64,000 bases of DNA from Trichoplax adhaerens (taxonomy: Eukaryota > Animalia > Placozoa): contig NW_002060951.1 in the NCBI RefSeq assembly GCF_000150275.1, forward strand, positions 2,384,323 to 2,448,322. The letters run 5' to 3'. The position numbers were made by a program, and so were the translations under genes. The notes beneath the pieces are model-generated. The model was given only the letters and a program-made list of their open reading frames with translations, did no database searches and was not told the DNA's origin. Below are positions 2,815 through 60,890 of this stretch, one piece after another. How positions within the stretch are numbered: position 1 is the first letter of the stretch; each line of letters begins with the position of its first letter.

Positions 2815-3060
2815 TACGTACGTACAGTACGTACTGTACAGAGTACAGTATGATGGACTGTATCGCGTTCTATCAAGACCATTTGAAGAAACTCATCCTG
2901 TACTGTACAGTACTGTACTGTACTGTACTGTACTGTACTGTACGTACTGTACAGTGTGGATAATGTACTGTACACTGTACACTGTAAAGTCATACAGTAC
3001 TATACAGTACAGTACAGTACAGTATTGTACTGTACAGTATTGGGAGTAGAACTCTCGCTC
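2815..3060. repeat. (TACTG)n/(CAGTA)n pentanucleotide array cluster
   Basis: e.g. tactgtactgtactgtactgtactgtactg at 2911-2945, with opposite-orientation runs adjacent forming palindromes. Confidence 0.9.
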
Positions 3061-3768: not shown

Positions 3769-4915
3769 AATCGTTACACGTTGCTATTTTAGGATCAAAA
3801 TTGTAGTCTAAATTACTGTATTACTCCCACAGTACAATACGAATACACTAAATTCGTAACATGGTTTTTAATATAGGACGTTGAGAGGTTGTTATGCGAT
3901 TGTTACTGAACGTTAAGTTTTTACCCGATGGGTGACAGGTACTGTATTTGTACAGATGAACGGCAACGGCTTTACCGGCGGCCAAGCCATACCGTAGATC
4001 AGTGTTCTACAGAGCTCGATGACATGGATGAGGTCATTAACGAGCATTGAAAGCTAATTGAACTGGCCATTTAATCAAGGCATTGGACAGAATGTATTTT
4101 GGACTAGTCGGCTCGATGGTTAATTGATCTAAACTTGAAATCGTCTGACCTTATAAATTCGAACAATATCAACAGTACTTGTGTGTACAGCATTTAAGAT
4201 AACTTTGCAATAATGTTCACAGCGCTACAAGTGGTCTTAGTGTCATTTATTCGAATGCTGTTCGTTGTCGTACCAAACAAAACTAGTACACAAACACAAT
4301 TTTACTCCCATATATGTACAATATAAGAAGACCGTGTATCATGACCGAAGCAAACGAACTACTGTATAATATTCACAAATAATAAAATGAAGTATAATTT
4401 CTGCTGCATTTTCTCATTTTCAAACAGCCCAAAAAGGAGAATATCTAAATTTTTTCATTCATAGTAGTACACATACATCAAACATAGTATGTATATAGAC
4501 CATGCTCTAGGACACAGCTCTTAAATAAATACATACTACAGTAAGGTTTATAAAATAAAACAAAATAATAGCATATACGCTCTGAACTTGTATCAATTGT
4601 ACAATATCTATTTCATGGTAACACAATTTGGTAACCTCAACTTAAGGCTTTTATATCAATGTGCAAAGGTAGCCCTAGGATGTTTACTGGGACGACTTGA
4701 AAGAAAGTCTAGCTAACATCACAATATAAGCTACATTTTTAGAAAATAATACTTTCGATTTTAACAATCTGCTACTGTATATACTGTATACAAACTTTAA
4801 AGAATTACATATTAGATGAATGACAGTCAATACTTGCAGCTGGGCACCATTATACACGTATGCACATATAAATATTTGCAGATCTGCAAATACATCTGCA
4901 TGAAAGACTTTTAAA

Positions 4916-24179: not shown

Positions 24180-24530
24180 GGTTTTGTTTTTACTGTATCA
24201 ATTATACAATATACAGTACTGTCTGTGCTAATACGGTACAGTACTTACTATAATTATTACAGTACGATACCGCGGACTAACAACCATTCGAAAGACGTCA
24301 TACTCAGTTGATATACAGTAGGTATTGTACTGAACAGTACACTACTGTACACTGTACAGTATAATAAAAAAAGAAAGAAAAAACTTTTATCTTTTTACCA
24401 GATCAAAGACTACTGTACAGTACAGCATGCTCCTTGCACGATCTCTACAGTACTGTACTGTACATCATAATACAATACAGTAGTACTATACACAGTACAG
24501 TATAGCGCACAGTACTGTACTGTACATTGG
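24180..24530. repeat. (TACTG)n/(CAGTA)n array cluster
   Basis: Repeated tactgtac / gtacagta runs, e.g. 24340-24360, 24410-24520. Confidence 0.9.
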
Positions 24531-24699
24531 GATCCGATTTCTTCAATGCGTTTGAATAGTAAAAACTAAAAACTATAGGTAAAACGCTTAAAAACGATTA
24601 ATCGTTATGAACCTTCCTATACAGATAGATCTCTTATTATATATTAAAATCATACATTTGCGATCATTTTTGTACAAATTGATGCAGAAATTGTAATAT

Positions 24700-24800
24700 C
24701 GAATCCATCGGATCACGTCGTGCATACAGTACAGTATTACGACACAGTGCAATAACCAAATCCATACTGTACTGTACTGTACTGTACACTGTACAGCATT
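24700..24800. repeat. (TACTG)n array
   Basis: catactgtactgtactgtactgtacactgtacag at 24762-24800. Confidence 0.9.
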
Positions 24801-24999
24801 CAGTGTCGTCAATCTTTCTTTTCAGCTTAAACAGTAATTCTCCAGAATTTACTGAAAAATTTTTTAAATTGGACATTTTACTGGACAGTGGCCCGGCAGG
24901 GCATTATCTTTTTCTGATTTATTAACAGATTATTTCTATTATTGAGGAATTTTTACTTCTGTACTAACTCAAATCGTTTAACATTAAACCGGAACCTGA

Positions 25000-25750
25000 T
25001 CCAGTGATGCATTACATACGGTACTGTAGTAATTGTAATAGTGTGTACTATACTGTACACTTGAAATATCTTTTACCGTGCGACTGTACTCTACTGTACC
25101 GTCTGTACGGTAAGAGTATGATTGCAGCTGGTTCGTCTGTGGTTACGAATTTACTGTACGTAATTGCTAGCGAATCTGACATGGAGGAATACGAATTCTT
25201 CCACCCCACTATCTTTAAACCGCAAGGAACAGTTTTTAGCGGAAAAATACAGATAATTATTCACATATCTCTTGATTTTAAGAGTTGGGGGCATATTACT
25301 GACCACACGCCCAGAAATCTATAAATAGCCATACACGCTACAGTATACAGTGTACAGTTCGTCGTACAAAATTTTAAAATACTGTAATCTTCGTACTGTA
25401 CTGTACTGTACTGTACTGTAGTGCTCAATAGAGACCCTACAGTACTGTACAGTACAGTGCTGTACTTTATACTGTACTGTACAGTACTGTACAGTATTCA
25501 CTATTCAGTACCGTTCCGTAGTACTGTACAGTACTGTACTGTACTGTACTGTAAAAGAAATCTCGATACAGCACAGTACTGTACATTAAAGCGTATAGCA
25601 GAGTTCTGACTAGTGAGCATTAGTGTTAGGATTGCTTTCATTTTGTCTGCATGTCTACAGTACTGTACAGTACTGTACATCCCTCTGTAATACTGTACTG
25701 TACTGTATAGTACTATACAGTCTATACTATACAGTGTACAAATGTGTTTT
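25000..25750. repeat. dense (TACTG)n/(CAGTA)n array field
   Basis: Many runs, e.g. 25393-25430 tactgtactgtactgtactgtactgtag and 25520-25552. The ORF-track entries 25004..25324, 25319..25501 and 25501..25773 are repeat-frame artefacts. Confidence 0.9.
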
Positions 25751-29009: not shown

Positions 29010-29223
29010 TGTCGACGCAACGAAAGAAACTGATCGACTAGGGCGCCTTGTTAACCACAGCAGGAAGAACTATAATTCTATCAGCAGGCTCATACCTATA
29101 AACGGTAACCCTCACCTTGTATTGATAGCGTATAGGGATATTGGAATAGGTGAAGAATTATTATATGATTATGGTGATCATAGCAAAAAATCTATTGAAG
29201 CTCATCCATGGTTGGAATTATAA
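29010..29223 (+). CDS. KMT5A: KMT5A SET-domain terminal exon
   Basis: Acceptor ttctctag|t. Translation CVDATKETDRLGRLVNHS...HLVLIAYRDIGIGEELLYDYGDHSKKSIEAHPWLEL* aligns to human CVDATRETNRLGRLINHS...LILIASRDIAAGEELLYDYGDRSKASIEAHPWLKH*. Confidence 0.9.
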
Positions 29224-29999
29224 ATTTAGAATTGTATTTGTATAGAATATTCAGAGTATCTTCTTTTATCTTACAGTGCAACGAACACTGAAAATCCTCT
29301 GTAAATTTTCTTATATACTATAATTATACTAAGTTATTAATTCTAAATAGCGCTCAAATAGTCCGTCTATCCGTAATAATTTTACTTAAAATGTAACGGT
29401 ATATATATATGTCATATACAAACTATAGATTGTGACACGAAACTCTAATGAGAATCGTTACAAGTTATAAGCTGTATTATTTCATGAGTAAAGTGTTTTA
29501 ATATTATTCTGTACAGTAAGTAGCAATCGCATATGTAAATTGTACAGTATGCTTTAGAATCTGTTTGATATACAGTACTATACTTCTTTCTGAATATGCT
29601 ATGCACTCTGTGCAGCATATGGCACAAGGAATAAATAACTCCTTGTATTGCTATAGTCTACAATTATGTTACTGTACATTTCTTTTTAATATTCTACTAC
29701 TATACAGTTTATATAATTTTTCTGCATATGTGTTAATATGCTATTTAAAGCGACTGTTCATAAATTCTTGAACATTAAATTTTGACGCAATAAATTAAAA
29801 TTTTTTTAATGCACACCACTATTTTCATTAGATCTTATTTATCGCATGAGGTATAGTATGATGTAAAGTAAAAAAGGACATAAAACTATAGATATTTCTC
29901 TCTTTCATCTACGGATAAAATCTTAGAACTCACTAGATATTGCAAAAGTAAAAAAATTTAGTAAAAATTTTTCCCAATAATTTAAGTTCACAGACTCAC

Positions 30000-30140
30000 T
30001 GTACTGTACAATACAGTACAGTAAGCTACAACGAACAATAGGATTGTATGGAGCACTGCGTATGATGCAAGTAACGTGCTGTACAGTACTATAGTGTACA
30101 GTACAGAAAAGTAGTGTCTTGTACTGTACACTGTACAGTA
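30000..30140. repeat. (TACTG)n/(CAGTA)n arrays flanking tRNA
   Basis: actgtactgtacaatacagtacagta... and ...gtactgtacactgtacagta. Confidence 0.9.
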
Positions 30141-30156
30141 TGTAATTGAAAAATTG

Positions 30157-30163
30157 AAAAAAA
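30157..30163 (-). terminator. pol III T-run terminator (T7 on minus strand)
   Basis: Minus strand reads tRNA...CCA-GTCATAAA-TTTTTTT-CAATTTTTC; the T7 run lies 8 nt downstream of the tRNA 3' end. Confidence 0.7.
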
Positions 30164-30171
30164 TTTATGAC

Positions 30172-30244
30172 TGGTCCGCATGGGGCTCGAACCCACGACC
30201 TTCGCGTTATCAGCACGACGCTCTGCCGACTGAGCTAACGGACC
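30172..30244 (-). tRNA. tRNA-Ile-type, anticodon GAU
   Basis: Reverse complement GGTCCGTTAGCTCAGTCGGCAGAGCGTCGTGCTGATAACGCGAAGGTCGTGGGTTCGAGCCCCATGCGGACCA folds as a cloverleaf: 7-bp acceptor stem, GCTC/GAGC D-stem, anticodon stem TCGTG/CGCGA, loop CTGATAA (U33, G34 A35 U36, A37), T-loop GTTCGAGC. About 80% identical to metazoan tRNA-Ile(AAU). Confidence 0.85.
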
Positions 30245-30409
30245 ACTCCGACAATGTACATTCTACAATACCATTAAAAACAAGATGTAGCGCTCAAACC
30301 TCACAAATTTCACCGGGATCGTAAAGACACGATTCATTCAATGAGTCACAGTATCGTACTGTAACTGTAAAACATTTAGCAACACTTAATATTTTTACGT
30401 ATTACATCA

Positions 30410-30540
30410 TAATGTACAGTATAGTACCGTGCAGTACTATACTGTAGTGTGCTGTACTGTACAGTATGGACCGTGACATACTGTACAATACAGTACTGTA
30501 TACTGTATATTTATTTATAAACATTACTGTACTGTATAAT
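30410..30540. repeat. (TACTG)n/(CAGTA)n arrays
   Basis: gtacagtatagtaccgtgcagtactatactgtagtgtgctgtactgtacagta... Confidence 0.85.
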
Positions 30541-30885: not shown

Positions 30886-31036
30886 ATGTCTCTTATCGTT
30901 AAAGCTTATAGTGACGACGAAATCCGTCGATTCGCATTGGACCAGAACGTAACAACTAGTTACAACTATCTTTATCAAAAGATTGGCACTCTTTTTCCAA
31001 ATTTACTAAGAGATTCCTATGTACTAAAGTGGTGTG
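30886..31036 (+). CDS. SQSTM1: p62/SQSTM1-like autophagy receptor, exon 1 (PB1 domain start)
   Basis: ATG at 30886. Translation MSLIVKAYSDDEIRRFALDQ... aligns to human [25 protein letters not shown]. Donor tgtg|gtaagc. Confidence 0.8.
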
Positions 31037-31850: not shown

Positions 31851-32539
31851 ACAGGCCGAAAGCTCCTTTCCCTCAAGCAGAATATCCACCTCATTGCAAG
31901 GCTTGGTGGTGGGGATACCCTGGTCAGAAACCACGCTGTGGTGGAAGGCCGGAAGGGTCTTGTAGATGGCGTAATGGCTCTCGTAGATGGCAATCATGGA
32001 TGGAGGAAGCCCAACGTTGGAAAGATCACAAAGAACAGAATTCGTCATTAAATGAAAACACTAACGAATCTTCTGAGAATGAAAATTCTGGAAACGTTTT
32101 CAATGCGTTTTGTCCTCAACAAATCAACCCCGAATTTATTAACTCTTTTGCTGCTAATATGCTAAGATCATTTGGCGTTGATCTGTCAGGATTTTGTCAC
32201 ACATCAAACGAGAGTAAGCCGGATCAACAAAATAGAGAAAGTGATAAGGGTTGTGACAGAAAGGACGAAGAGACGAATTCTAAATTAGCCGATGGTGCTT
32301 GCGCAAGCGCTACAACTGCTGAATCTTCTGCAAATTCTAAACCATCACAGCAAATCAATCAAGATCATAATCCTGATATAAATGAGAACATCCAACAAGC
32401 CATAACTCAAATGGAAGCCATGGGATTCGACAATCAAGGAGGATGGCTTACTCGATTACTTGAGGCTAAAAACGGTAATATAAGCCGAGCATTGGAAGCT
32501 ATTTATCCCAACAGATCTAAAGATTCGGGTCTTCAATAA
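31851..32539 (+). CDS. SQSTM1: p62-like terminal exon (Trp-rich segment, low-complexity linker, C-terminal UBA)
   Basis: Acceptor atatag|ac. Trp-rich segment ...[16 protein letters not shown]... resembles human HFGWPGWEMGPPGNW. C-terminus [36 protein letters not shown] aligns to the human [41 protein letters not shown]. No CxxC ZZ finger is seen anywhere between PB1 and UBA. Confidence 0.85.
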
Positions 32540-41569: not shown

Positions 41570-41720
41570 AAGTACAGTACAGTACTGTACTGTACTGTAC
41601 AGTTACGATACTGTACTGTACTGTACTGTAGGTTTACTGTACTGTACACTGTACTGTACAGTGCTGCTTTACAGTACGCCCATAGGCCACAGTCCAATGG
41701 TACAGTTTATGGACTACAGT
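41570..41720. repeat. (TACTG)n/(CAGTA)n arrays between CYB5D2 and HNF1 start sites
   Basis: agtacagtacagtactgtactgtactgtacagttacgatactgtactgtactgtactgtaggtttactgtactgtacactgtactgtacagtg. ORF-track entries 41316..41804, 41488..41697 and 41634..41924 are artefacts. Confidence 0.9.
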
Positions 41721-41990
41721 ACTAAAGTTTACAGTACTGCAACAGCAACCAGAAGAGCCAGAAGGGACTACGTAGATTACACTTGCGCAGATAATTTCAT
41801 TTAGCGCTTTAGACTTATTAAACAAGGAGTGAGTTGTGGTGCTGACCATTTTTTGTTCGTTTACACTGCATTGTACAGCTACACAAACCTTTCTTTTGTT
41901 CTCATTTGGGTTCTTTTCGTTCATGTTTTATTTATATTGCAGTTTTCCACTGCTTTTAAAACTGATATCGTAAGAAGAAATTCCAAGATC

Positions 41991-46314: not shown

Positions 46315-46440
46315 GTAAGTTACTATTACACTTTACTTTTTGATATTCTCTCATTTTGGCTTCTATTTCTATTCATATAGTTTAGTTTTGTATATATCTG
46401 TATGGTAATGAATTGTCTATCTTTATAAAATCGTTAATAG

Positions 46441-46776
46441 ACGAAAGCGATATAGAAGATGATACTACAGTAAACTTAACTATAGATGATCTACCGAGTA
46501 GCCCTCCTTCCCCCAAGCGACAACGCCGTAGTCGATTTAAATGGGGTTCAGCTAGCAAACGTATTTTATATGATTCCTATGCTAACAATACAAATCCTTC
46601 AAAGGAGGAACGTGATATGTTAGTTGATGCTTGCAATCATGCTGAGTGTGTTCAACGCGGCTTGCTGCCAAATCATGAGAGTGCTTTAGGTTCTAGCTTG
46701 GTTACTGAAGTTCGGGTATACAATTGGTTTGCCAACCGCCGCAAGGAGGATACTTTCAAGATAAAATATCGTAATA
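46441..46776 (+). CDS. HNF1: HNF1 atypical (extended) homeodomain exon
   Basis: Acceptor taatag|ac. Translation ...[78 protein letters not shown] aligns to human [78 protein letters not shown]. Donor aata|gtaagt. Confidence 0.9.
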
Positions 46777-46888
46777 GTAAGTATGAAGAATATAATAATA
46801 ATTCTCCAAACCATACTTTCAAATAGAAATACTAGCGAACATGATTTATTTGACGTTACTAAATATTTTACTTTGTGTGATTAATTAG

Positions 46889-55039: not shown

Positions 55040-55560
55040 TCAAACTGCGGAATACTGTACAGTGTACAGTACAATACTAACTACAGTACATACTGTACAC
55101 TGTACAGTACAGTACTGAAAAAAGCATTCGCTATTATCGTCATCGACGGTAGCCACGATACGACAGTCTCACTCGTTGCAGTTTGTATGAGTCACAGTAT
55201 GCCTTTTGCCTACCCGTTACGGTACTCTTGTTCGGCGTGCAGATTACTACGGTGGCCCATTACTGTACAGATTGCTGTACAGTACAGTGTACAGTACAAC
55301 AAGTACAATACTGTACTGTAAGCTGTACAGTACAGTACAATAAGTACAATACAATGTACTGTACAATGTACAGTGTACAGTACAGCACTCGATATGGCTA
55401 CCTGATCCTTGCTTGGATCATCATAGCGTAAAAAACCTACAGTACTGTACTGTACTGTACTGTACTGTACTGTACTGTACTGTACACCTGAAATTTCCAT
55501 TAGCGTGATTAATTATTGTACTGTACAGTGTACACTGTAGAAGAGCACCGGTGGTAAAGT
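55040..55560. repeat. (TACTG)n/(CAGTA)n array field filling the ANKRD13-POLR1C divergent intergenic region
   Basis: Includes (tactg)x8 at 55441-55485 and many palindromic junctions such as tgtacagtacagtgtacagtaca. ORF-track entries 55010..55321, 55183..55431 and 55210..55500 are artefacts. Confidence 0.9.
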
Positions 55561-56141
55561 AAGATCCATAAAATTACAATTTCATCAATACAAGTTCTAA
55601 TGATAATACGGTGACTTTTATCTGATAGACTTGAAATCATCGAAGTCTAAGATTTTAAAACTGTTTCAGCTGCATACTGCAGTAAATAAACCTGGTCCAG
55701 TCGAACTGTGCAGAACACATACTGTACTGTATAAAGGCACAATTTTTGTTAATAAACTGGCCAGTACGGATGCCGAATCAACTTTAAGTTCATAGTCTTT
55801 ACTTACTATATACTGCATGTGGTATGGCTACGCAAACAGCTCAGCTCCGGACTCGTGTTCAATTGGAAGAATACCAAGTTAAAAATGTTAGATACTGAAC
55901 TTATATATCAAAGTGTTAATTAAGATCATCTTTGTATCTGGAACTACGTGTATTAATAGATTTCCTGTAATTTATTACGCCTCTCATTACTTGTTACCGT
56001 TATTTCACTTTCTACTTATAACGTGTATAGTTCTTGTAACACATACATTATATGCGAATGTAGTAATGGCAATGCATACCAGAATGCAATGATTTCTAGT
56101 TTACAAATGCTCAATAATAATTTACAGATAGCAAGAAATAA

Positions 56142-59439: not shown

Positions 59440-59520
59440 CCTATTCTACTGTACTGTACAGTACTGTACATCAAATGTACAGAATGTACAGAACACATTG
59501 TACGGTACAGTAGGGATAGT
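59440..59520. repeat. (TACTG)n/(CAGTA)n arrays
   Basis: tactgtactgtacagtactgtacatcaaatgtacagaatgtacag... Confidence 0.85.
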
Positions 59521-60067
59521 ATGGACTGTCATTGCTGTCATGGCTTGCCAGAAAATGATTTTTGAAGTTTTTAATAGTCCGTGATACTATCTACTTTACG
59601 TACAGTAAACCAGTGAAACTTAACTGGTCTATTGTACAGTATTTGTACTATATAGCCAGCAGAGTATGACATCAAAGATGAAGATACAGTACACTACAGT
59701 ACAGTATGTGTAAACTTGATATTAATGATATGAAAACTAGTACTGTAGCATTTATTTTCGAGAAGATATCCTGATTTACTTTGTAGCGATCAAAATGATT
59801 GCTAAATAGTCAGATATCCATATTAAGTTAAGATAATATAGTATTCATTTATCATTAGTGATTGATATTACATGGACTTTGCAAGTTGATCAACTAAAAC
59901 AAGCCAGGGACCTCTAGCCATTTACGCATACTGATAATTTAAAATTTTTTTACTTGAGAGGTCACTGTACTGTACACATAGTGACAGCGCTGTACAGTAC
60001 TGTATGAAGCCTGGCCTGGAGTACCGTACTATCAGTAGAACACTAACTAGTTTTAAGTTTTACTAGT

Positions 60068-60600
60068 ACAAACTCCCGTCGCTATGCTGACGGATTACTT
60101 TGTTATAATATTACAAACTCCCGTCGCTTTGCTGACGGATTATGTTCTTATAATATTATACTTCTAGAATATTATTTTACAATAATACTTCAAAAGTGGC
60201 TCGGCCTTGCATCGCTATGCTGGCGGATTACGTTGTTATAATATTACAAACTCCCGTCGCTTTGCTGACGGATTATGTTCTTATAATATTATACTTCTAG
60301 AATATTATTTTACAATAATACTTCAAAAGTGACTCGGCCTTGCATCGCTATGCTGGCGGATTACGTTGTTATAATATTACAAACTCCCGTCGCTTTGCTG
60401 ACGGATTATGTTCTTATAATATTATACTTCTAGAATATTATTTTACAATAATACTTCAAAAGTGACTCGGCCTTGCATCGCTATGCTGGCGGATTACGTT
60501 GTTATAATATTACAAACTTCCGTCGCTTTGCTAACGGATTATGTTCTTATAATATTATACTGTACTTCTAGAATATTATTTTAAAATAATACTTCAGGCG
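60068..60600. repeat. 133-bp tandem satellite, about 4 copies, with internal ~45-bp sub-repeat
   Basis: acaaactcccgtcgctttgctgacggattatgttcttataatatt recurs at 60068, 60113, 60246, 60379 and 60512 (period 133). Each sub-unit contains the inverted repeat ccgtc-gctNtgct-gacgg (hairpin-capable) and ends in ttataatatt. Confidence 0.9.
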
Positions 60601-60629
60601 TGACTCGGTCTTGTCCTCATTTACTATAC

Positions 60630-60890
60630 AGTACAGTACGTAGCTAACATGTGATACAGTATCACTTACCGGCGTTTTTTTATCATTTGTACAGTACAGT
60701 ACTGTACTGTAGATACTGTAGATAAAAAAAAATGTTATGCTCTTGATTTTTAATAAAGTGGCAGTTAGCGCGCACGCGTAGGGCGGAAAATTTAAAAATA
60801 TGCTGTGGTCACTCAACATGCACAGTACAGTAATTTCAATTTGAAATTTAATTTCTGTTACAGTGTACAGTACAGTACAGCATGTTACAT
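60630..60890. repeat. (TACTG)n/(CAGTA)n arrays flanking the satellite
   Basis: tacagtacagtacgtag...tgtacagtacagtactgtactgtagatactgtag...gtgtacagtacagtacagcatg. Confidence 0.85.

Follow-up and report, generated by a model that had tools for sequence, protein, structure and literature searches.

The locus described here raises the question of what a tRNA-Ile gene with a GAU anticodon is doing in the genome of an animal. Reviews describe GAU as missing in Eukarya, where AAU becomes IAU through ADAT, and placozoans were not among the clades sampled; the sole exception named is the Leu-GAG of Saccharomyces and Candida glabrata (PMC8007984). The stretch that we analysed, referred to below as the window, comprises 64,000 nucleotides of the Trichoplax adhaerens genome, and an initial annotation made from its letters alone had pointed to such a tRNA on the minus strand. 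We asked whether the gene is genuine, whether it belongs to the animal, and what it would mean for isoleucine decoding.

ARAGORN called a single tRNA in the 64-kb window, a tRNA-Ile with the anticodon gat at 30171-30245 on the minus strand, and assigned no other anticodon. Rfam RF00005 matched 30172-30244 of the same strand with 62 bits, against a gathering score of 29 (E = 4.8e-11); the match spans model positions 1-71 of 71, without truncation, and no non-canonical pair was flagged. Both programs thus bear out the cloverleaf with a GAU anticodon that the initial annotation had placed at these positions. The gene is 73 nt long and has neither an intron nor an encoded CCA, the discriminator A73 (30172) being followed by GTC. 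The RNA as read from the window sequence is GGUCCGUUAGCUCAGUCGGCAGAGCGUCGUGCUGAUAACGCGAAGGUCGUGGGUUCGAGCCCCAUGCGGACCA. Its anticodon loop is C32 U33 G34 A35 U36 A37 A38, with the anticodon at plus-strand coordinates 30211-30209, and direct reading of the sequence confirms the loop CU-GAU-AA that had been reported for it. ADAT2/3 acts on A34, and the genomic base here is a G at 30211 (the complement of c), in the window and in the four other loci described below.

The signals expected of a gene transcribed by RNA polymerase III (pol III) could be read directly from the sequence. An internal A box lies at 30226-30237 on the minus strand (tRNA positions 8-19, TAGCTCAGTCGG) and fits the TRGCNNAGTGG-type consensus of eukaryotic tRNA genes, and an internal B box at 30183-30193 on the same strand (tRNA positions 52-62, GGTTCGAGCCC) fits the eukaryotic consensus GGTTCGANNCC. 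On the 3' side, A73 is followed by the 8 nt GTCATAAA, then by a T7 terminator on the minus strand at 30157-30163, which begins 9 nt past A73, and then by a second run, T5, at 30149-30153; the T7 terminator had been claimed at a distance of 8 nt, and it is found there. The A and B boxes, the nearby oligo-T and the lack of CCA are together those of a eukaryotic nuclear type 2 pol III tRNA gene. Upstream, a five-locus alignment revealed a conserved, AT-rich block of 26 nt at 30262-30287 on the minus strand (-43 to -18 of the tRNA, CATCTTGTTTTTAATGGTATTGTAGA). Because this block sits where TFIIIB binds, a TATA-like reading is reasonable, and from its composition and position we consider it possibly a TATA-like TFIIIB site or pol III element.

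The body of the tRNA agrees with its anticodon in pointing to isoleucine. When numbered through the RF00005 alignment, the tRNA bears U30-G40 and G15-C48; in a survey of tRNAs from Metazoa, the first of these pairs proved specific to Ile and the second was a mark of Ile-RAU (PMC9023262). A35, U36, A37 and A73 are present too, along with the normal U54/A58; A73 and A37 are among the listed Ile identity elements (PMC9976931). By its anticodon, A73, U30-G40 and G15-C48, features of sequence all, the window tRNA would be classed as a cytosolic RAU-type tRNA-Ile and is predicted to be isoleucylated. The consensus fold of seven GAU-type sequences is a cloverleaf of 21 pairs, 10 of them with compensatory changes on both sides, and none of the seven departs from the U-G pair (U30-G40). 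Folding the single RNA by energy alone gave no cloverleaf (z = -1.8), a failure that is common for tRNAs, and the cloverleaf therefore rests on the covariance model and on covariation. In overall sequence the window tRNA is about 82% identical to human Ile-AAT and 81% identical to an Ile-AAT gene on contig L112, so that the roughly 80% identity to metazoan Ile-AAU given initially was about right; identity to the Ile-GAU of E. coli is 62%.

We next consider where the gene lies. The window is about 33% G+C and has few long ORFs. It contains an HNF1 homeobox exon (46413-46826) that agrees throughout with T. adhaerens TRIADDRAFT_28952, and contig NOWV01000083.1 of Trichoplax sp. H2 matches the window at 99.1% identity across 21.7 kb. 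According to the H2 annotation, the tRNA sits in a 1.66-kb spacer between a SET-domain gene, the last exon of which ends at 29223, and the gene for sequestosome-1 (p62), of which the PB1 exon begins at 30886 and the UBA exon occupies 32000-32539. Transcription of the tRNA is divergent from that of p62, with 640 bp between the tRNA and the p62 start codon. The window tRNA is a nuclear animal gene and not contamination.

To reach orthologous loci we used homologues of the p62 UBA exon, and these led to four further loci: one in Trichoplax sp. H2, two on ENA metagenome contigs and one on a Logan contig. The p62 exon protein is 52% identical to that of the window in the two ENA contigs and 56% identical in the Logan contig. 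In these three distant contigs the p62 exon DNA is 78-84% identical to the window and most of the non-coding DNA is unalignable, and the contigs are collinear with the window; the G+C content of the further-locus contigs is 33-35%. The three contigs carry no taxonomic label, and from their synteny and GC content, and since no relative is closer, we infer that they come from other placozoan lineages. Each of the four loci carries a tRNA-Ile(gat) upstream of p62 and on the opposite strand, in the orientation seen in the window, and the tRNA is identical at 73 of 73 nt in all five placozoan or placozoan-like loci. A run of T6-T7 is kept at an unchanged distance in five of five as the surrounding trailer diverges, and the 26-nt block at -43 to -18 likewise aligns in every locus amid otherwise diverging flanks. 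We take the tRNA to be under strict purifying selection. Sequencing error, strain polymorphism and a decaying copy are ruled out by the 73/73 identity together with the T-run kept across the five loci. The intact pol III signals, the single copy and the complete syntenic conservation also uphold the earlier judgement that this is a functional tRNA and not a SINE relic.

The initial annotation had further described the tRNA as bracketed by palindromic arrays. Repeat mapping indeed placed TACTG/CAGTA pentamer arrays on both sides, at 29997-30140 on the 3' side and at 30349-30540 on the 5' side, neither being part of the gene, but the arrays are not specific to the tRNA. Their pentamers make 463 hits in the window, in 27 clusters that cover about 3.1 kb or some 5% of it (for example 2825-3039, 24191-25705, 41575-41739, 55053-55815 and 59447-60877), and TACTGTACTG occurs 63 times where 0.26 occurrences would be expected. 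The arrays are imperfect, of mixed orientation and often palindromic (TACTGTACAGTA); within the H2-annotated part (window 20.9-42.5 kb), all clusters fall outside gene bodies. Trichoplax sp. H2 has them in abundance and the distant placozoan-like contigs more sparsely, and around the orthologous tRNA the repeat is weak in L002 and absent in L004. Since the array is weak or absent beside these distant orthologues, the bracketing is an accident of location. We dropped the idea that arrays and tRNA form one element, given the number of clusters across the window and their state at the L002 and L004 tRNAs. The arrays are a genome-wide intergenic repeat, and the tRNA merely lies in a short spacer where that repeat accumulates. 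They may represent a placozoan intergenic or promoter-associated repeat; a search for literature on a TACTG repeat found none. Adjoining TACTG clusters, we also observed a tandem repeat at 60079-60613 with 4.0 copies of a 133-bp unit (96% matches, TRF score 955) and an internal periodicity of about 45 bp.

For the place of this gene among the isoleucine tRNAs of the species, we took advantage of the catalogue of Hertel et al. 2009, whose Table 1, from tRNAscan-SE, gives 49 canonical tRNA genes for T. adhaerens, together with one for SeC and a single pseudogene (PMC2655684). In its N-A-T row the AAT cell is empty, CAT holds two Met genes, GAT one Ile gene and TAT one Ile gene with an intron; the other seven ADAT families have A34 only, with no G34 (Val AAC, Leu AAG, Arg ACG, Ser AGA, Ala AGC, Pro AGG and Thr AGT) (PMC2655684). 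We re-added the table, and because this reading totals exactly 49 genes, its column order is secure. As the table lists one GAT (PMC2655684), the window gene is the single Ile-GAT gene of T. adhaerens, and because the catalogue is without Ile-AAT, it is probably the only decoder of AUU and AUC in Trichoplax, on the published catalogue. A normal AAU set elsewhere in the genome, with this copy unexpressed, had been named initially as a finding that would refute the interpretation, and the catalogue shows one GAT, no AAT and one TAT (PMC2655684). This absence of Ile-AAT is that of a 2009 tRNAscan-SE run on the 2008 draft assembly (PMC2655684). The catalogue has one gene per anticodon for almost every family (PMC2655684), and duplicated tRNA genes are scarce in Trichoplax (Bermudez-Santana et al.). 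As a separate observation on the same table, the GAA (Phe) cell holds only the single tRNAscan pseudogene, without which the 49 canonical genes sum (PMC2655684); the sole Trichoplax tRNA-Phe gene, scored as a pseudogene, may be unusual in structure.

The gene is therefore already known, having been tabulated in 2009, and the Ile-GAU anticodon is itself known in eukaryotes. It had been noted at the outset that eukaryotic isoleucine decoding normally uses AAU and UAU. This stands insofar as GAU is unusual, but Ile-GAU was already on record as a minor isodecoder in D. willistoni, in S. mansoni, and in human and other primates, whose copies have an odd C54 (PMC9023262, PMC2770079). A synteny-based survey reported no Ile isoacceptor shifts among closely related eukaryotes (PMC3923123), and our literature search found no link of Trichoplax with I34, A34 or ADAT decoding. 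The use of GAU as the only AUY decoder in an otherwise inosine-using metazoan seems to have gone unremarked.

Comparison with known systems helps to place the Trichoplax tRNA. It is like the eukaryotic tRNA-Ile(AAU) in U30-G40, G15-C48, A73, C32/A38, A37, the A and B boxes and the T-run, and differs from it in G34, so that deamination is neither possible nor needed; moreover, I34 weakly reads AUA, which G34 cannot. With the minor tRNA-Ile(GAU) of primates, D. willistoni and S. mansoni it shares a nuclear, eukaryote-type G34 gene. Those genes, however, accompany a large AAU set, and in primates their T-loop has an odd C54-A58, whereas the Trichoplax gene is canonical, strictly conserved and the only listed AUY decoder. 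In the tRNA-Leu(GAG) that Saccharomyces and C. glabrata use for Leu(AAG), one ADAT family has likewise passed from A34 to G34 while the others keep A34 (PMC8007984). The amino acid and the lineage are different, and the yeast G34 tRNA is dispensable, since tRNA-Leu(UAG) reads the whole box, whereas in Trichoplax no other reader of AUU and AUC is listed. Finally, the bacterial and archaeal tRNA-Ile(GAU) has the same anticodon and the same logic of AUC and AUU decoding, but its body (62% identity for the E. coli sequence), gene organisation and mode of synthetase recognition are different, and AUA is read with a modified C34 tRNA rather than with the UAU tRNA of Trichoplax. The prokaryote-type body and context (rRNA operon, organelle genome, often an encoded CCA) are absent from the Trichoplax gene.

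We weighed four other accounts of the locus against this evidence. The gene could be a minor extra isodecoder, as is human Ile-GAU, working alongside a normal set of Ile-AAU (I34) genes that had escaped the 2009 catalogue. Low-copy Ile-GAU additions are documented in human, other primates, D. willistoni and S. mansoni (PMC9023262, PMC2770079), and the absence of AAT rests on that one catalogue (PMC2655684). Nevertheless we consider this account unlikely: the catalogue has about one gene per anticodon and none for AAT, few Trichoplax tRNA genes are duplicated, and the primate GAU genes have the aberrant C54 where the Trichoplax gene is canonical. In addition, identity at 73 of 73 nt where neighbouring exons differ by about 20% is what would be expected of an indispensable gene. 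Such conservation could also be ascribed to binding of TFIIIC, if the gene served, in addition to decoding or in place of it, to separate the SET-domain gene from the divergent p62 as a chromatin boundary. tRNA genes are known as insulators in yeast and mammals, and the position beside p62, 640 bp from its start codon, is conserved. A boundary would constrain the A and B boxes and not all 73 nt including the anticodon, however, and we regard this role as very unlikely.

Two further accounts would deny that the sequence is an ordinary animal gene, and both appear to us extremely improbable. According to one, the tRNA is a tRNA-derived repeat or pseudogene borne by the element that makes the TACTG arrays. 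Just 0.5% of window positions are bracketed by arrays as strongly as the tRNA is, and inverted arms at 30070-30129 and 30410-30467 flank it. Yet the 27 array clusters are unrelated to tRNAs, the repeat is weak in L002 and absent around the orthologous L004 tRNA, and the tRNA gene shows no degeneration; it occurs once in 64 kb and is identical at the syntenic site in five assemblies. According to the other, the sequence is of bacterial or organellar origin, through contamination, transfer from an endosymbiont or a nuclear copy of a mitochondrial tRNA-Ile(GAU). Bacteria, archaea and mitochondria use GAU as their standard anticodon for Ile (PMC8007984), and a tRNA-Ile(GAU) on the bacterial contig L021 is 84% identical to the placozoan one, with nearly the same D and anticodon arms. 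Against such an origin, the locus lies between animal genes and is syntenic across five assemblies; it has a pol III T-run, A and B boxes and the metazoan Ile-specific U30-G40, with no encoded CCA; and its closest relatives are coral nuclear genes (92%), the E. coli Ile-GAU being 62% identical.

We thus consider it very likely that the window feature is a single-copy nuclear gene for the cytosolic tRNA-Ile(GAU) of T. adhaerens, which is independent of ADAT and is likely the sole decoder of AUU and AUC. For this reading we infer the expression, charging and decoding range of the tRNA and the role of the upstream block. As proposed, RNA polymerase III would transcribe the gene from its internal A and B boxes, perhaps aided by the conserved TATA-like block around -30, and the T7 run would stop transcription. 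After end-processing and CCA addition, the tRNA would be charged by the cytosolic isoleucyl-tRNA synthetase (IleRS), which would read A73 and the anticodon, G34 presenting the same 6-carbonyl as inosine. In yeast, IleRS binds G34 via Arg999 to the 6-carbonyl, and I34 likewise; unmodified A34 makes a poor substrate, and the I34 modification raises charging 16-fold (PMC11685878). The Trichoplax enzyme would accordingly be expected to charge the GAU tRNA without any editing step. In decoding, G34 would read AUC by Watson-Crick pairing and AUU by G-U wobble, and AUA would be read by the separate, intron-containing tRNA-Ile(UAU). Isoleucine decoding would then need no A34-to-I34 editing by ADAT2/3, although the seven other ADAT-dependent families retain A34.

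Codon usage accords with this proposal. Among the roughly 1,150 codons of window exons, isoleucine is encoded by ATT 28 times, by ATA 19 times and by ATC 13 times. The preference for U over C is also seen in the Phe, Tyr, Asn, Asp, His and Cys boxes of the same exons, two-codon boxes that are read by G34 tRNAs in all eukaryotes. Because the Ile bias matches that of the G34-read boxes, we see no obvious difficulty for decoding by G34 in a genome so rich in A+T.

If the reading is right, Trichoplax would be a natural counter-example to the rule that eukaryotes lack GAU, using inosine for seven families and plain G34 for Ile. By its case, I34 in tRNA-Ile would be dispensable for metazoan life, and the animal would make it possible to ask what advantage inosine brings to the Ile box. 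On the practical side, placozoan tRNA adaptation indices and gene recoding should treat Ile as a G34 box.

We also looked for relatives of this tRNA beyond the placozoans, scanning metagenome contigs from JGI for an anticodon arm of the eukaryotic type that carries G34 (AGAGCGTNGTGCTGATAACGCNAAGGTC). The pattern was found in 108 contigs bearing 124 Ile-gat genes (ARAGORN), which fall into several families, and relatives with 86-92% identity to the placozoan tRNA and with pol III terminators are present in coral and sponge-holobiont contigs. The closest, family A, is identical at 67 of 73 positions, and two compensatory pairs account for four of the six differences. It predominates in metagenomes Ga0126336-43, one of which, Ga0126343, was obtained from the coral Cyphastrea (bioRxiv 10.1101/391565). 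One family-A contig carries an exon of an ammonium transporter that shares 91% identity with Oculina patagonica and 81-85% with other anthozoans, and a T-run lies within 25 nt downstream in 35 of the 39 exact copies. Family A tRNAs are coral nuclear genes.

Family-A Ile-GAT genes occur in mixed clusters with Ala-AGC, Pro-AGG, Thr-AGT and Val-AAC, and the coral clusters thereby repeat the Trichoplax pattern of A34 everywhere except Ile. The 72 coral-type contigs contain 93 Ile-gat genes and one degenerate Ile-aat, a count that is biased, since it was for their GAT genes that these contigs were selected and the copies stand in tandem. The Cyphastrea GAU genes differ from the one isolated gene of Trichoplax in their tens of copies, their tandem mixed clusters and the degeneracy of many of them. 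Particularly dense clusters, with up to 16 tRNAs in 15 kb, were observed at L038 1-14986 and also on L014, L022, L008 and L070; in these, Ile-GAT is interleaved with Ala-AGC/TGC/CGC, Pro-AGG/TGG, Thr, Val and Asn, and many copies are slightly degenerate. ARAGORN calls of "Pro-ggg" on coral contigs proved to be degenerate TGG-type copies, and we rejected them as G34 proline tRNAs.

Among the remaining families, D is 86% identical to the placozoan tRNA and lies on contigs of the demosponge holobiont metagenome JAAGOD01; judged by the description of that metagenome (PMC8518922), it perhaps comes from the sponge. Family B is 89% identical and was found in JAAUYG01 and Ga0099809, and two GC-rich families, C and E, are also among the GAU matches; families B, C and E are eukaryotic. 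In a control scan of IMG/VR the AAT pattern was present in 11 contigs and the GAT pattern in none, which agrees with AAT as the usual eukaryote-type form.

These relatives raise the possibility, which we put forward only tentatively and judge to be on the less probable side, that G34 in the main tRNA-Ile is shared by early-branching animals (Placozoa, some corals and perhaps sponges), with seven families edited and AUU and AUC read via GAU. The mixed coral clusters, the biased 93:1 ratio of gat to aat and the GAU gene of the sponge holobiont are hints in this direction. A search of the literature for per-anticodon tRNA tables of cnidarians, including the supplements of PMC2888827, found none. 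A GAU pattern across early-branching animals appears to be undescribed, and the coral arrangement, which may be like that of Trichoplax, is likewise unremarked. Should the pattern extend to corals and sponges, it would date the point at which tRNA-Ile became an ADAT substrate: tRNA-Ile would have joined the ADAT set later (e.g., in Bilateria), or would have left it once in a common ancestor. It would then also be a rare genomic character for the relationship of Placozoa and Cnidaria and for the expansion of the inosine system.

Several other contigs from these searches deserve mention. On L112 (1343-1999), a eukaryotic Ga0315905 contig of 70% G+C, an Ile-AAT gene and an Ile-GAT gene with a common body are separated by 583 bp. 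In the GAT copy the acceptor stem and the T-loop are weakened and the T-run is missing, so that this copy looks like a decaying duplicate; duplication of this type is the ordinary route by which GAU copies arise beside an AAU set. L021, a 92-kb Ga0272441 contig and the one bacterial match of the JGI scan, carries its tRNA-Ile(GAU) at 4042-4118, with an encoded CCA and with genes for ribosomal protein S1 and TyrRS nearby, and its likeness to the placozoan tRNA probably reflects convergence within a highly conserved tRNA type. Lastly, the eleven IMG/VR contigs (L113-L123) are viral, giant-virus bins among them, and carry the eukaryote-type tRNA-Ile AAT arm.
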